From IMG/VR virus record IMGVR_UViG_3300005758_000044, positions 1-64,000 of that record: a DNA stretch of 64,000 nucleotides, one strand, 5' to 3'. The translations under genes and the position numbers were made by a program. This document shows positions 123 through 59,688 of this stretch, piece after piece. Position 1 is the stretch's first letter. The number at the start of each line of letters is the position of its first letter. The stretch is from a virus. Lineage: Duplodnaviria > Heunggongvirae > Uroviricota > Caudoviricetes. Below the pieces are notes generated by a model that did not search any database, was not told the DNA's origin, and saw only the letters and a list, made by a program, of their open reading frames with translations.

Positions 123-244
123 ACTAATTCCTATTTCTGAAAATTGAACTGATACTGTCAACACAAACGTAAATTAGTTGTGATATGATCAGTACCAAGA
201 AAAAAGTTAAAACGGGGTGTGCCCTGCAAATGTAAAAAATTCTT

Positions 245-673
245 TCATAGTTTTCCTTCGTGTTTTAGTCTGCGATACTCTTCACTTTCAATTTGTGTAT
301 CACCAACACTGTAATGCCAAGGTTGGTGGCGACCAAACGTGAAAAACAATGTAGTCACTGGTCCGTTTGTAATTTCAAGTATTTTGTGGTAATAGTTTCT
401 ATCGCCACTCGCGTATGAAAAAGGTCGTCGAACGCGGGTGAACTCCTGTGGTTCACAGAACAAATCTTTTCCAAGATATTGTTCAATATAACATCCACTC
501 AAGACAACCGTCTTGAAGTTCCACGGATGACTGTGAAGATGTATATCACGATCATGTTCATAGATTCTATGGATATACAAAGCAAAATTCTTGGTTTCAA
601 TGATGGCAAATCGTTTGAAATGCAATCGACCTGTTTTGCTTCGAATTTCTTTTACCCACTGTAGAAGTTTCAT
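245..673 (-). CDS. hypothetical protein (His-rich HxH motifs)
   Basis: 142-aa ORF in track, co-oriented with neighbours, coding-like composition. Confidence 0.55.
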   Translation of the reverse strand: MKLLQWVKEIRSKTGRLHFKRFAIIETKNFALYIHRIYEHDRDIHLHSHPWNFKTVVLSGCYIEQYLGKDLFCEPQEFTRVRRPFSYASGDRNYYHKILEITNGPVTTLFFTFGRHQPWHYSVGDTQIESEEYRRLKHEGKL

Positions 674-674
674 A

Positions 675-953
675 CTAGATACTATAATCTATGATTGGAG
701 GCTTGTCAAGATTAGCCAATAGAGTCTTGGTTCTCGTCAAGTTATATCTGGCTTTATGCAATGCCTTTTTGAATCCATCAATATTATCACGTTTGGTTAA
801 CCAGTGGTGTTCACTTAACTCTTCACGTCGAATCATGATTTGTAAACCTTTGACTTCGCCTTCGTATTTTACGATCTGATGTTCGTATAACTTGCGAAGT
901 CGATCTTTTTCACTAAGACCTTCGGTGTTTTTCCATAATTCGTATGCATTCAT
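675..953 (-). CDS. hypothetical protein
   Basis: 92-aa ORF tightly packed between neighbours. Confidence 0.5.
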   Translation of the reverse strand: MNAYELWKNTEGLSEKDRLRKLYEHQIVKYEGEVKGLQIMIRREELSEHHWLTKRDNIDGFKKALHKARYNLTRTKTLLANLDKPPIIDYSI

Positions 954-955
954 AC

Positions 956-2104
956 TTATCGATCACTCTTGAAACAATTATCAGGATCGACACGTCCATA
1001 ATTCGGTGTTCCAAGTCCGGTAAGTCCCATATAAAGGAACGTAACCTCCTTGCCGATCCACTTGTTCTTTTCCTTCAAGATTTGAGCACGCTTCTCATAA
1101 CTACCCTTAAACACAGCATCAAATGTAACGTTCTTCCACTTGAGAGTCACATTGGTAGCAGCACCCTTCCAGTTACCATCACCATCTGTGATGTCAAGAA
1201 TCGTACCCTCGTCATCATCTTCACTCTTGACCTTCACAAGATTCTTGGAACGCTTGTGCTCATAAGGAGCATCCATTTTACGAAGAATGCCACCCTCCTG
1301 TTGGTCATTGAGAAGATCCTGAAACAACTGGTTCATGTGGTCATTCGACTTGACAATCGTGGTTTCGACTTCAACAAAATACTTGGAAAGAGGAATCACA
1401 ACCTTGTCGATCCAATTCTTGCGTTCAGAGTATGGAGCTTCCTCGTCCAAAATATCCGATTTGCCACGGAAATTGTAACCGTCATAGATATAAAACTTGA
1501 CCTTCTTCTCACTTTCTGCCAAATCGGAAGGATCAATATTTTTCGTCTTACGAATCAACTTGCTGATTTCGTTCAGCTGTTGACGAAGATCATTATTGAA
1601 CAGCTCACCGTCGAGAACTGCATTGGGATATTCCTTGAAGAAAGGTTTGAGAGCGTTCTCAACGTGCGGTACACTGACATACTTCTCACCCTTTCTGGTA
1701 AACAACCCGTCCTTGGTAGCAATACAACGATTGCCATTGAATTTACACTGCATTGCCCACTTATCCTTGGCAAAGTCCGGTTGCTTGGTGAGCTTGTTAA
1801 GAGGTTGTGCCAACATAGGTTCCACATACGTAGAAACGTCAACGTCCTTGACACTTTTGTGGTATCCAGTCTTCAACTGTTTCTTGTACTTGGCTTCGAT
1901 TTCAGCCGTTGCCTGTTCGATTGCGGTGGTCTCATTTGACCGCCCAACATTCTTGGCTTCAGCATGACTCCACTCGGAAGTCACCTTTTCACCATCGGTG
2001 AGTCCAGCGACAGTACGATACTTGCTACCGTTCTGTTCCATGTACCAGACACGAATGTTTCCGAGTGAATCCTTGGTGTAGAGCGTAGAATAGGTCTTGA
2101 TCAT
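956..2104 (-). CDS. ATP-dependent DNA ligase-like nucleotidyltransferase
   Basis: 382 aa; covalent nucleotidyltransferase motifs: motif I CKFNGNR (KxNGxR variant of KxDGxR), motif IV VLDGELF, motif V EGGILRK, KVK motif VI. Confidence 0.7.
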   Translation of the reverse strand: MIKTYSTLYTKDSLGNIRVWYMEQNGSKYRTVAGLTDGEKVTSEWSHAEAKNVGRSNETTAIEQATAEIEAKYKKQLKTGYHKSVKDVDVSTYVEPMLAQPLNKLTKQPDFAKDKWAMQCKFNGNRCIATKDGLFTRKGEKYVSVPHVENALKPFFKEYPNAVLDGELFNNDLRQQLNEISKLIRKTKNIDPSDLAESEKKVKFYIYDGYNFRGKSDILDEEAPYSERKNWIDKVVIPLSKYFVEVETTIVKSNDHMNQLFQDLLNDQQEGGILRKMDAPYEHKRSKNLVKVKSEDDDEGTILDITDGDGNWKGAATNVTLKWKNVTFDAVFKGSYEKRAQILKEKNKWIGKEVTFLYMGLTGLGTPNYGRVDPDNCFKSDR

Positions 2105-36343: not shown

Positions 36344-36445
36344 TGTGGATATATCCTAACAGCTTTTTAGAGAAAGTCAAGCCTCACTTGATTTTCCGCG
36401 TATGAATGATTCACCAAAAAACCACCTTGTTACAGGTGGTTGAAA

Positions 36446-38660: not shown

Positions 38661-38891
38661 TCATAGTGGATACAGTTTATCACTGATTGACAGACATTCA
38701 ACAACTTTTGCTTCCGTTATCTTGTTGCGCCAGTATTCATTGGATCTCCTGCCCATTTCAGTTTCAATCTCATTTATATTCTGAATTTCTACTTCACGAT
38801 TTGCAACACGAAACCGCTTTACAGCATGATATGAATTCGCTTGAGCGTAAAATGTTGCCAATTCAATATCAGATAAATCAGAAATTTTCAT
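38661..38891 (-). CDS. hypothetical protein
   Basis: 76 aa. Confidence 0.45.
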   Translation of the reverse strand: MKISDLSDIELATFYAQANSYHAVKRFRVANREVEIQNINEIETEMGRRSNEYWRNKITEAKVVECLSISDKLYPL

Positions 38892-39029
38892 AGTAGATCA
38901 ACTAACTTTTGAATTGATTCGGTTGCATCACACCTAATGTATTCTGCAATGCTTTGGGACAGGTTTTCCGTCTTCCACCCACTAGGCTATGGGTTCTACC
39001 GAATCAACTGAAAATATCCTATCATGCTT

Positions 39030-39200
39030 TTATCGAAAGTCAACAGACAATTTTTTCCAACCTTTTAGGATTTCTTGCTGAGTTGTTGGGTCGTTTGAAC
39101 ACAACATTAACGCATTTTGCATTGATGTCAATGCAGTTTCTGCATCATTTTTTGATGAAAATCCCGATGCAATAACACACTTCTTGATTACAAGTTTCAT
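39030..39200 (-). CDS. hypothetical protein
   Basis: track ORF starts at TTG inside the promoter; trimmed to ATG (MKLVIKKC...). Confidence 0.4.
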   Translation of the reverse strand: MKLVIKKCVIASGFSSKNDAETALTSMQNALMLCSNDPTTQQEILKGWKKLSVDFR

Positions 39201-47085: not shown

Positions 47086-47307
47086 ATGACTCCCGCTGAA
47101 GAATTAAATTCGATCTACGAACGCATTGGTGATGGCGAACCAATCACCGATGAATTGAGCGAACGAATTGAACTGCTGGAGAACATTGTCAATCCGAAGG
47201 TTGTTTATCGGTGTGAACCAGTTGAACCGGAAGGTTGTGGTTGCGATCATCCAAGTTATTGTTGGGACTGTGCAGCAATCCGTGGTGGTTGTCCGGAAGA
47301 TGCTTGA
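47086..47307 (+). CDS. small Cys-rich protein
   Basis: CEPVEPEGCGCDHPSYCWDC. Confidence 0.5.
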   Translation: MTPAEELNSIYERIGDGEPITDELSERIELLENIVNPKVVYRCEPVEPEGCGCDHPSYCWDCAAIRGGCPEDA

Positions 47308-47340: not shown

Positions 47341-47730
47341 ATGAACGCTAACGATCTTGCTGTGTGTTTGATTCCTTCCAATTTGACGTGGTTCACCTTT
47401 AGTCAAAACAATAGCGGTGGACGGTTCACTGTGGATGACAAGGTGGATGCATATGTGATTATTCAGGCACCTGATGCTGATACCGCGAACCAATTGGCTG
47501 AACGTATCGGTATCTACTTCAACGGTGTGGACGAGGGATACGACTGTGAGTGCTGTGGCGACCGATGGAGTTCGATGTACAGTGATGACTACGGAACCGA
47601 TATGCCTAAGATTTACGGACATGAAGTTTCGTATTCGCCTGATGCTGTGATGACCAGTGTGTACCCGGGCGATACTTGGATAAAGATGGGTGTCAAGGTT
47701 TATCCTTACTCGGTGATCAGCAAGATGTAA
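47341..47730 (+). CDS. hypothetical protein
   Basis: 129 aa. Confidence 0.5.
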   Translation: MNANDLAVCLIPSNLTWFTFSQNNSGGRFTVDDKVDAYVIIQAPDADTANQLAERIGIYFNGVDEGYDCECCGDRWSSMYSDDYGTDMPKIYGHEVSYSPDAVMTSVYPGDTWIKMGVKVYPYSVISKM

Positions 47731-47738
47731 CAACTTAC

Positions 47739-47770
47739 AAGGTTTGCGGTGATCCTTCGCAGAAAACCGA
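47739..47770 (+). repeat. conserved upstream hairpin element
   Basis: GGTTTGCGGTGATCCTTCGCAGAAAACCGA. Confidence 0.55.
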
Positions 47771-47811
47771 TTGACTTTCTTCAATTGTCTGTTATCTTGA
47801 AATCACAACAT

Positions 47812-48677: not shown

Positions 48678-48905
48678 ATGAAAAACGAAGATGTGGTTCG
48701 TATCTGTCGGAACATCATCACCGGACAGTATTACTTGGTTCGTGGTGAATGTAAGGATTTGTTTGACGAATACGACTATGTGGTAATTCGAAGGGATGAT
48801 AAAGACGACTATAAAGACCACTATGTACGCAAACATCTGTTTGACAGTTTTGAGAATGTATCGTATCGGATGTTCAAGAAACTTAACAAAGAAGCTGGGT
48901 TCTAG
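48678..48905 (+). CDS. hypothetical protein
   Basis: 75 aa. Confidence 0.5.
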   Translation: MKNEDVVRICRNIITGQYYLVRGECKDLFDEYDYVVIRRDDKDDYKDHYVRKHLFDSFENVSYRMFKKLNKEAGF

Positions 48906-48946
48906 TTGACTTTCGATAAAACTGTGATACATTGATTTCAGATTTC

Positions 48947-49021
48947 GGGATCGTAGCTCAGTGGTAGAGCAGTGGTCTTTTAAACCATTGGTCGTGGGTT
49001 CAAGTCCCACCGGTCCCACCA
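48947..49021 (+). tRNA. tRNA-Lys (anticodon TTT), canonical
   Basis: GGGATCGTAGCTCAGTGGTAGAGCAGTGGTCTTTTAAACCATTGGTCGTGGGTTCAAGTCCCACCGGTCCCACCA; own early promoter at 48905. Confidence 0.8.
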
Positions 49022-49023
49022 CT

Positions 49024-49172
49024 TTTAGAATTCATCAGGTTGCCGAATACGAGGCTTAATCTGAAAGGACGATGAGTCTGATGAATTCTTGATTTACAGA
49101 TTGTTGTCCGCGTGGATATGGTACGAACGTGGACTCACGAAGCGAGGCGGCCCCAAATCGACAACAATCTGT
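49024..49172 (+). ncRNA. two consecutive long-stem hairpins downstream of tRNA-Lys
   Basis: 12-bp perfect stems AGAATTCATCAG/CTGATGAATTCT and CAGATTGTTGTC/GACAACAATCTG each enclosing 38-50 nt. Confidence 0.35.
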
Positions 49173-49174
49173 TA

Positions 49175-49203
49175 AGGTTTGCGGTGATCCTAATCAAAAC
49201 CGC
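49175..49203 (+). repeat. conserved upstream hairpin element
   Basis: AGGTTTGCGGTGATCCTAATCAAAACCGC. Confidence 0.6.
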
Positions 49204-49249
49204 TTGACTTTCTTCACAGAAGTTCTTTACAAGTCAGAAAAGTCTGATA

Positions 49250-49800
49250 AGATATTTTCAGTTGATGAGGCTATAGACAATCCGTTGGGAAATAAAGCAG
49301 AGAAATGACGGGACTCTGCCATCAACCTATAATTTTCAGTGGAAAATAACCGGAAGTAATGTACCGGGCCTCCACAAGGAGGTGAGATACGTAGTCATCG
49401 TGTATCCACTGACAGCTAACTCAGAGAGTGCCAGTCAATAGATGCCGAGCATGGGGCGACTGGTAATGCCGCTGAGGAAATGGAGAACCAGACCTGCTGT
49501 TCAAAGAATGAAAACTGGATCACTTTTAACCAAGCAATAGAGATTAGCTACTCGAAAACAGTCAAAAGTTGTACTGATAACAGCGTTGCAGGCGGCCTGT
49601 AAAATAATGTACGCAAACGGAAACAGATGAACAATGACTTTTTTGCTTGGTTGTATTTTTGAAAGCATAGCAAGATAACAGATAGACGCCGAACCTGTTG
49701 GTTGTAAAAGGTGACGCACACCGCCGTCGCGGGGGTCCACGTTCAATTCGTGGTAGGTTCGTAGGGAACATACGGCCATCCTTAAATGGAGAGTCGGTGA
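49250..49800 (+). ncRNA. promoter-driven ~550-nt non-coding transcript (unclassified structured RNA candidate)
   Basis: early promoter at 49204 followed by 560 nt with no plus-strand ORF >40 aa; local stems e.g. CCTCC-ACAA-GGAGG; ends at next promoter 49810. Confidence 0.4.
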
Positions 49801-49854
49801 AATCCTGAAACTTGCTATTGACTTTCTCTAAAACTCTGATAAGGTAGATTCACA

Positions 49855-50013
49855 ATGATTGAGATTATCCGTAATCCGTTGACAAAGTTGTCACTTCTCA
49901 GCAACATTTGGATTGAAGATGGTATGTTGTTTCACATCCTCATTCCACATGACACAGAACAAATCGAATTGTTGACTGACAATGAGATTGGTCAATATAT
50001 GGGCGGCAATTAA
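49855..50013 (+). CDS. small protein (~52 aa)
   Basis: hand-translated after promoter at 49810. Confidence 0.3.
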   Translation: MIEIIRNPLTKLSLLSNIWIEDGMLFHILIPHDTEQIELLTDNEIGQYMGGN

Positions 50014-51085: not shown

Positions 51086-51433
51086 ATGAAAATCACATAC
51101 TCAATCGCAGAAGCACTCACCATCCTCACCGAACGTGCCAAGGCACTCAACCACATTCAAGATTTGTCGGTTGAAGTAACATACCCACAAAACCCCATTG
51201 GTGCACAAGACACCAATACCACCGATCAACATCCTTTGGAAGCTTACGCCGTAGTCGTCCGGGAATATGGCGGTTCTAGGCACAATACGAACAAGATTCC
51301 AGCCATCAAGGCGATTCGAGACCGAGTCCGGGGTTTGGGACTCGCTGACGCAAAGTGTGTCATTGAATCCGACCCCGCGTTGGTGCTCATTCACTTTTCT
51401 CGCTGCAATACGTTGAGCGGAATTTCCGAGTGA
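51086..51433 (+). CDS. ribosomal protein bL12 (L7/L12) C-terminal-domain homologue
   Basis: IKAIRDRVRGLGLADAKCVIESDPA aligns to bL12 CTD [24 protein letters not shown]; novel N-terminal half. Confidence 0.6.
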   Translation: MKITYSIAEALTILTERAKALNHIQDLSVEVTYPQNPIGAQDTNTTDQHPLEAYAVVVREYGGSRHNTNKIPAIKAIRDRVRGLGLADAKCVIESDPALVLIHFSRCNTLSGISE

Positions 51434-59349: not shown

Positions 59350-59688
59350 TTTTTTACCATACAGATGAAGGCGACAAGCTAGTATATTTTGAGTGGTTCG
59401 CCCCAATCCTTTTACCCGGGCGGGGTTCTTGGTTCGACTCCAAGAGAGTGTATGATGCAACGAAGTAGTAACTGTGTGGGATCCTGAAAGACGACCATAG
59501 AATAAGTGAATCCGGAACATAGTTTCTATGATTGGAACAAACGTGAAATCCAGTAAACAATTTTTGAATAGCTGATAAGGTCTGAAGAAGCTAGCATAAG
59601 TAAGACACGAACCAACGGAGTATCTGTTGTGGAATAGTAAGCGATAAGTTAGTTGAATAGATTGATCACTATATCAACTGATTTTCAT
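59350..59688 (+). ncRNA. unassigned structured region with orphan canonical T-arm (CTTGGTTCGACTCCAAG) and local stems
   Basis: no ORF, no complete cloverleaf; GGCGA...TCGCC and CCCGGGCGGGG stems. Confidence 0.25.

Follow-up and report, generated by a model that had tools for sequence, protein, structure and literature searches.

The 64,000-nt stretch of uncultivated-phage DNA analyzed here (IMG/VR record IMGVR_UViG_3300005758_000044, positions 1 to 64,000; hereafter the window) carries, on its plus strand just past position 49200, a promoter followed by a 561-nt element composed of folded RNA modules. The window contains 12 tRNA genes, one of which, a tRNA-Lys gene, lies 230 nt upstream of the element. 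The original prediction, made from the letters alone, had proposed a promoter-driven gene for a structured non-coding RNA (ncRNA) at this site, and about 25 distinct homologues, the lack of a conserved open reading frame (ORF) and compensatory changes in several helices now support it. The locus is laid out as follows, with module letters referring to a repertoire shared with related phages:

49204..49209, plus strand: orphan -35 box TTGACT, 38 nt from TAAGAT and without a -10 at the right distance
49226..49253, plus strand: element promoter, with TTTACA at 49226-49231, a 16-nt spacer, TG at 49245-46 and TAAGAT at 49248-49253
49260..49327, plus strand: module G, closing stem 49261-49267/49320-49326
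49336..49412, plus strand: module C, a tRNA-sized four-way junction with an 8-bp closing stem (49336-43/49405-12) and three hairpins inside
49413..49518, plus strand: module D, with helices P1 49413-16/49496-99, P2 49420-24/49472-76, P3 49429-36/49458-65 and P4 49444-46/49455-57
49526..49654, plus strand: module H, a long hairpin with closing strands AACCAAGCAA/TTGCTTGGTT and, further in, the helix CGTTGC.../...GCAAACG
49667..49687, plus strand: conserved linker ATAGCAAGATAACAGATAGAC, ahead of the tRNA-like unit and present in every aligned 3' domain
49691..49760, plus strand: module K, a tRNA-like cloverleaf
49762..49807, plus strand: tail hairpin T, directly after K, with stems CGGC 49773-76/GTCG 49793-96 and TCC 49779-81/GGA 49788-90
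49796..49814, plus strand: nearly invariant 3' motif GGTGAAATCCTGAAACTTG, which marks the end of the element; the -35 of the next promoter starts at 49818

The consensus promoter motif of this phage (TTGACTTTCTCTAAAAC..TGATAnnnT) occurs 59 times in the window against 8 copies expected, always with a 16-nt spacer, and nearly every copy is followed by an ATG 6–10 nt (mode 9) past the -10 hexamer. A full consensus promoter had been placed at 49204. A promoter is indeed present, but the TTGACT at that position is the orphan box, and the working promoter is the one at 49226-49253. Similarly, the statement that all other promoters lead into an ATG within about 10 nt describes the norm, with exceptions at 48906 (ahead of tRNA-Lys), 39043 (minus strand), 57734 and 34951 (minus strand). 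The promoter sequence AAGTTCTTTACAAGTCAGA...TAAGAT is also found ahead of the homologous elements in five related loci (L002, L003, L004, L029 and L051), and the AAGTTC just upstream of it is conserved in relatives as well. Judging from promoter spacing, transcription is predicted to start at A49260. The orphan -35 box is probably the joint at which an RNA cassette recombined, together with its own promoter, behind a standard early promoter. A repeat of ~45 nt (GTTTGCGGTGATCC.AATCA.AAACCG.TTGACTTTCTTCA), consisting of a small hairpin and a -35 box, was noticed through near-identical peptide strings in the mechanical ORF list and is present at both 47676-47790 and 49129-49220. Because the copy at 49204 terminates in the orphan -35, the repeat suggests that promoter cassettes act as recombination joints.

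The ORF scan bore out what had been said of the coding potential. Between 49254 and the next promoter, the longest plus-strand ORF encodes 40 aa (49480-49602), and the only longer ones are the two antisense ORFs named originally, 49501-49779 (92 aa) and 49562-49771 (69 aa). A conserved protein-coding frame, which would speak against an RNA gene, was looked for across the relatives and none was found, nor is any ORF common to the elements. A protein product, whether from an unusual start, by frameshifting or from the antisense ORF 49501-49779, is hardly credible. The 92-aa frame is there, but 9.5% of shuffled versions of the region yield an ORF of that size, and no relative retains the frame, their longest antisense ORFs spanning 31–73 aa. 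The frame also covers modules H and K, which are nonadjacent elsewhere. Neither antisense ORF matched a family in a PHROGs search, and the substitutions seen among relatives track base pairs, not codons.

Folded modules and the tRNA-like unit

In the window, the modules follow one another in the order G-C-D-H, after which come the tRNA-like cloverleaf K and the tail hairpin T. Covariation alignments were built from the related phages, as had been recommended, and they support several helices, including two pseudoknots and the cloverleaf.

Module G occupies the first position, which usually belongs to a module termed A, and the two have a closing-stem sequence in common. Its hairpin (GCAGAG 49297-49302 with CTCTGC 49314-49319) is accompanied by a pseudoknot, CCGT 49282-49285 with ACGG 49308-49311, whose stem covaries between phages (CCGT/ACGG, CCAG/CTGG, CCAA/TTGG and UCAA/UUGG). 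Seven distinct sequences, six from relatives and that of the window, give 99% of paired cells, and the folding z-score is -2.0. Module C is a strongly stable fold (z = -4.4, reached by 0 of 200 shuffles), with four distinct sequences and one compensatory pair; its middle arm is 10–19 nt longer in relatives. The stem CCTCC-ACAA-GGAGG pointed out originally is a real hairpin of this module (49369-49382). The other stem proposed, GGGCGACTGG...GCCGCTGAGG, does not form as such: GACTGG pairs upstream with CCAGTC, and CTGAG with CTCAG.

Module D, 91% identical to the copy in L005, is built around an invariant core of 21 nt, GCCGAGCATGGGGCGACTGGT. In its nine distinct sequences 95% of the cells are paired, against 15–48% when the partners are slid; five pairs have changed on both sides, and the covariation score is reached by 0 of 500 shuffles. 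Its pseudoknot, CCAG 49488-91 with CTGG 49515-18 in the window, takes the forms CCAG/CTGG, CCGG/CCGG, UCUGG/CCAGA and CCGA/UCGG in different phages. Module H is the weakest-supported module: its six distinct sequences retain the 12-bp closing stem and show covariation (GC to CG) at two inner pairs.

The tRNA mimicry of K extends to the acceptor stem, the T arm and the T loop; an anticodon loop is lacking. The 7-bp acceptor stem GAACCTG/TAGGTTC, extended by C49690-G49761, is directly continued by a 5-bp T stem (CCACG 49737-41 with CGTGG 49749-53) that carries the 7-nt loop TTCAATT, in agreement with the tRNA T-loop pattern TTCRANY. The loop of the first arm always has GG, and in tRNAs this GG partners the T loop. 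The middle arm is CCGC-CGTC-GCGG in the window and, across sequences, 4–7 bp long with a loop of 3–6 nt, which is why we describe K as lacking an anticodon. Compensatory changes keep 7 of 7 acceptor pairs and 5 of 5 T-stem pairs in six sequence versions. When 15 distinct sequences are aligned by covariance model, T-stem pairing is 100%, and four of the five pairs are doubly changed. Models of genuine tRNAs reject the unit: neither Rfam nor ARAGORN calls the window copy, the copy in L003 scores 17.3 bits against the 29-bit tRNA cut-off, and for the copy in L002 ARAGORN returns an aberrant tRNA ('tRNA-???'). In many relatives a second tRNA-like unit (J) lies just upstream of K.

Taken together, K and T are represented by the same 15 distinct sequences, with 90% of cells paired as opposed to 34–48% after sliding. 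Changes on both sides affect 18 of the 32 pairs, amounting to 67 doubly changed cells where 20 are expected, and 0 of 500 shuffles reach the observed score. These sequences were re-aligned by covariance model R1, a fit that favours the structure; the acceptor and T stems were confirmed directly as well, one sequence at a time. Seven versions of the tail hairpin, folded independently, give the same shape, and pairs 102-130 and 103-129 of alignment A8 covary in 6–7 of the 15 sequences. Several pairs are G-U in all or most sequences; many G-U pairs identify the plus strand as the RNA strand and speak against a palindrome acting at the DNA level. A helix joining the two ends of the element (ATTTTCAG with CTGAAAA), proposed by folding, was rejected as unsupported: the predicted start comes only after its 5' half, and where relatives have a changed 3' half no compensation is seen.

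Relatives and the exchange of modules

Relatives were found by exact-pattern scans. A T-arm segment retrieved one IMG/VR contig (L002), a promoter-proximal 20-mer three further viral contigs, and a related 20-nt pattern with one ambiguity code 32 metagenome contigs, three of which (L033, L037 and L038) are chance matches. A module-G segment led to L006, and a gapped 3'-domain pattern to six more viral contigs among many chance matches; of the 81 new loci returned by the loose gapped pattern, 75 were chance. The resulting set of ~25 distinct homologues in IMG/VR viral and JGI metagenome contigs includes a contig of 295,831 bp, and the elements range from the 561 nt of the window to ~1130 nt in L007. 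Between the window and the carrier phages the RNA segments are 87–93% identical, against 65–78% for coding DNA, so that the RNA modules are the best-conserved DNA they share. GenBank phages offer only remote relatives of the window phage's proteins, most of which lack a family assignment. Weak covariance-model matches of K+T at 59377-59488 of the window and at 12003-12748 of L001, a related 157-kb phage contig (E = 0.15-0.45), are probably noise.

The known RNA families did not account for the element. Rfam 15, run over the whole window at the gathering threshold and over 48900-49900, L002 and L003 at E<=10, returned only tRNAs and noise. The suggestion of an intron-like ribozyme or another catalogued large RNA thus found no footing: group I and II introns, RNase P, tmRNA, 6S, OLE, GOLLD and ROOL gave no Rfam model match even at E<=10, and neither did the known self-cleaving ribozymes of Rfam 15. 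ARAGORN finds no tmRNA, the sole Rfam signal of that kind being a permuted-tmRNA match of 12 bits (E = 5.7) over tRNA-Lys, and no Y RNA was found by Rfam. Near and distant BLAST searches against 50,697 GenBank phage records gave no match for the window element, nor did those records match the 944-nt element of L003. One genome per GTDB species was scanned for the invariant core of module D and for module A; nothing was found, so the scans point to no host and reveal no mimicry of host RNAs. The element belongs to an RNA family seen only in uncultivated phages and undescribed with respect to Rfam 15 and GenBank phages, the 8,495 unnamed candidates of the IMG/VR structured-RNA catalogue (PMC10690425) standing outside this comparison.

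The repertoire comprises at least 15 types of module. Within the arrays of the relatives, modules always follow the same succession: A, B, (tRNA-Asp), C, D, E, M, F, G, H or I, J, K, T. Module content differs even between loci whose first module is 98–100% identical, as BLAST of defined pieces revealed, giving a mosaic. A bona fide tRNA-Asp lies between modules B and E in seven relatives, and in L006 modules F and G stand between tRNA-Leu and tRNA-Arg. The predicted fold of L011 consists of eight hairpin domains side by side, and the minimum-energy folds of several relatives split into the same units. An AU-rich linker, TTTTTTAGTTCTTTT(A)ATAATTT, recurs between modules in L003, L005, L007 and L035 and resembles the upstream half of the element promoter; it may mark a site of processing, what is left of a promoter or a recombination joint.

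Modules also occur by themselves. In the window, a solo module lies 10 kb away from the array on the other strand:

38912..39043, minus strand: solo module X, with a consensus promoter at 39043-39016 and a 98-nt four-way junction at 39009-38912

X begins with ATTTTCAGTTGAT, the same start as the main element, and folds with z = -5.3 (0 of 200 shuffles). It is 90–93% identical to copies in L012, L029 and L034, where module D comes next. In L029 and L012 this X-D pair forms a promoter-driven unit of its own just upstream of the main array, while in the window D is inside the array and X stands alone. Directly after the window copy of X follows an ORF starting at 38891. Arrays are interrupted as well: in L051 a 317-aa antisense gene of endonuclease VII type (194-1147, minus strand; PHROG E = 1.4e-7), a probable homing nuclease, lies inside the array, and together with two new promoters it parts A-D from the remaining modules. 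In L030 a similar AT-rich insertion follows module B (~150-960 of the extracted element) and is succeeded by a new promoter. Further promoter-driven single-hairpin RNAs with the same ATTTTCA start are found in L004. A chain of separable modules is a better description of the RNA than one monolithic fold.

A proposed processing model and its rivals

The promoter, the non-coding nature, the covarying folds, the tRNA mimicry of K, the cassette-like presence and absence of modules and the solo modules were computed here; a model built on them adds transcription start, cleavage by RNase P and RNase E, action in trans and a decoy role as proposed steps. The early sigma-70-type promoter at 49226-49253 would drive a transcript of ~555 nt, a chain of independently folding modules (G, C, D and H, two of them pseudoknotted) that ends in K and T. 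Such an array would act like a tRNA operon carrying structured RNA modules, not tRNAs alone. Host tRNA-processing enzymes would recognize its tRNA-like units, along with the tRNA-Asp of relatives: cleavage by RNase P would fall at G49691 and that by RNase E in the AU-rich linkers, and the stable small RNAs so released would act in trans early in infection. That the locus is a tRNA-operon-like array of independent structured modules, with tRNA-like processing points and trans-acting products, is the reading we favour, at slightly better than even confidence. Within it, the transcript is probably cut at the tRNA-like unit.

The purpose of the released RNAs is more conjectural. Their likeliest role would be to bind or decoy host factors, a guess by analogy, with module content varying as in an accessory or anti-defence island, and an arms race of this kind is suggested because of the aptamer-like complexity of the modules (pseudoknots, invariant loops), their rapid gain and loss and their home in a tRNA island; the balance nevertheless leans against it, by roughly two to one in our judgement. 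A bolder version, which we regard as possible but doubtful, is an 'RNA accessory island' of cassette-variable, aptamer-like RNAs, some of them tRNA-derived, each countering or hijacking a host factor such as a tRNA-targeting or RNA-sensing defence, with tRNA-like processing signals between them. If true, it would mirror protein anti-defence islands at the RNA level, a type of system as yet undescribed.

Fusions of this type have precedents. MALAT1-mascRNA and the TMER genes of murine gammaherpesvirus 68 join a tRNA-like cloverleaf with a degenerate anticodon arm to a structured RNA, the parts being separated by RNase P or RNase Z, which the cloverleaf recruits. These are eukaryotic or eukaryotic-virus systems, however, whereas cutting at K is a prediction. 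In tmRNA and the bacterial Y RNAs, acceptor and T-arm mimicry without an anticodon is joined to pseudoknotted or otherwise structured domains. The tRNA-like domain of tmRNA is made by the two ends of the molecule and comes with a tag ORF; K, in contrast, is a local 70-nt cloverleaf with neither tag ORF nor CCA. In the tRNA region of T4, two small stable non-tRNA RNAs of unknown role, RNAC and RNAD, are transcribed (PMC3014915). By genomic setting they are comparable, being extra structured RNAs carried along in a tRNA operon, but where T4 has two small RNAs, the arrays here reach 1.1 kb and have a promoter of their own.

Several observations weigh against an array of independent, processed units. 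K does not encode CCA, and a conserved hairpin follows immediately on its 3' side, an unusual arrangement in a substrate for processing. Modules H and C are supported by few sequences (six and four). The folding energy of the region as a whole is ordinary on both strands (z = -0.88), and thus energy alone would not flag it. No intrinsic terminator is predicted after the element in the window. Finally, every locus has its modules in collinear order, and none lacks the 5' hairpin or K+T. Independent units need neither collinearity nor fixed ends, so that the RNA could work as one piece.

This last point leads to the foremost rival, a single large 'ornate' RNA folded as one unit in the manner of GOLLD and ROOL, in which the modules would be an exchangeable periphery around a core of 5' hairpin and K+T, and which might form multimers or cages. 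GOLLD, an RNA of phages and prophages, resides in tRNA islands, measures hundreds of nucleotides and has pseudoknots, a conserved 3' part and a variable region that sometimes includes a tRNA; ROOL, also from phages and prophages, is ~600 nt long and often near tRNA genes (PMC12286853). The setting found here is much alike, with a phage element of 560-1130 nt near tRNA genes, pseudoknots, conserved ends and a variable middle capable of holding a tRNA. Nonetheless, neither the window nor L002 or L003 is matched by the models of GOLLD and ROOL, the conserved folds of these two RNAs lack a counterpart here, and what is conserved at the 3' end is a 125-nt tRNA-like unit plus hairpin. The common core comes to only ~170 nt, a gene and new promoters divide the arrays of L051 and L030, and modules are lost, gained and used alone; ROOL, by comparison, is one conserved multi-pseudoknot fold, not a chain of cassettes. 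We therefore consider a single folded unit rather unlikely. As a class, the element is of the GOLLD/ROOL kind of large structured tRNA-island phage RNA and a member of neither Rfam family. RNAs of that type are abundant and their function is unknown; the present family shares their setting but splits naturally into modules. Its natural variants, with different subsets and solo modules, offer a handle on which piece does what, and single modules of 70–130 nt are amenable to expression, pull-down and structure solution. The tRNA-like unit yields a testable prediction of RNase P processing, and the several pseudoknotted folds, now with a covariance model, make up a new RNA family missed by current databases (Rfam 15).

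The remaining explanations carry far less weight. A decaying cluster of pseudo-tRNAs with no function of its own would fit the tRNA-region location, a K that is tRNA-like yet fails tRNA models, and the cloverleaf-shaped, tRNA-sized modules C and X; it is very unlikely given that compensatory changes keep the helices, that loops and cores are invariant (the 21 nt of module D, for example), that modules are more conserved than neighbouring genes and that a dedicated promoter is conserved. To a similarly slight degree we credit a long cis-acting leader regulating the downstream gene 49855-50013. In the window no terminator stands between the element and that gene, but the gene has a full consensus promoter of its own, with an ATG 9 nt past the -10 as in the other early genes; in relatives the downstream genes differ, and a T-run follows the 3' motif of the element. 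A DNA-level element made of palindromes (a replication origin, a packaging site or a recombination hotspot) could explain the many inverted repeats, the mosaic exchange and the nuclease-gene insertions at the locus. It is most improbable all the same: the G-U pairs, some of them invariant, would be A-C mismatches on the other strand, and the pseudoknots, the T-loop motif and the fixed orientation behind a promoter fit an RNA.

Neighbouring features and minor observations

The region immediately upstream of the element belongs to the same ORF-free RNA island:

48906..49203, plus strand: upstream part of the island, with a promoter (48906-48933), tRNA-Lys(UUU) (48947-49021) and three hairpins

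Two of these hairpins, possible further modules, are long (49027-49089 and 49096-49172), with perfect closing stems of 12 and 13 bp and z-scores of -2.5 and -2.8, and the small one is at 49181-49203. Homologues of the two long hairpins after tRNA-Lys were detected in none of the relatives.

Pfam and PHROGs searches of the neighbouring ORFs identified no RNA-processing enzyme or Ro-like partner nearby. A 60-aa Zn-ribbon protein of the CxxC...CxxC type is encoded no more than ~1 kb upstream of the element in 22 related loci (for example L002 8762-8941) and is absent from the window; on that account it was rejected as an obligatory partner, and its recurrence is regarded as synteny. In the window, a 115-aa ORF at 51086-51433 has a Pfam match, at an E of 8.6e-6 just above the cut-off, to the C-terminal domain of ribosomal protein L7/L12.

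On the minus strand, a promoter at the start of 34951-34535 is followed by ~390 nt without a convincing ORF. This segment, another ncRNA candidate, contains three CTTCAAGGTAG(C/T)GAA repeats at intervals of ~60 nt and closes with a strong, terminator-like hairpin (AAACGGAGACA...TGTCTCCGTTTTTCTTT). The ATG that follows the early promoters is not preceded by a Shine-Dalgarno sequence, for instance at 47304, 48449, 48641, 49818, 50721 and 51049 on the plus strand and at 36380, 36840 and 37392 on the minus strand. Early genes thus appear to be expressed from leaderless or nearly leaderless mRNAs, which may be a hint at the translation habits of the host.

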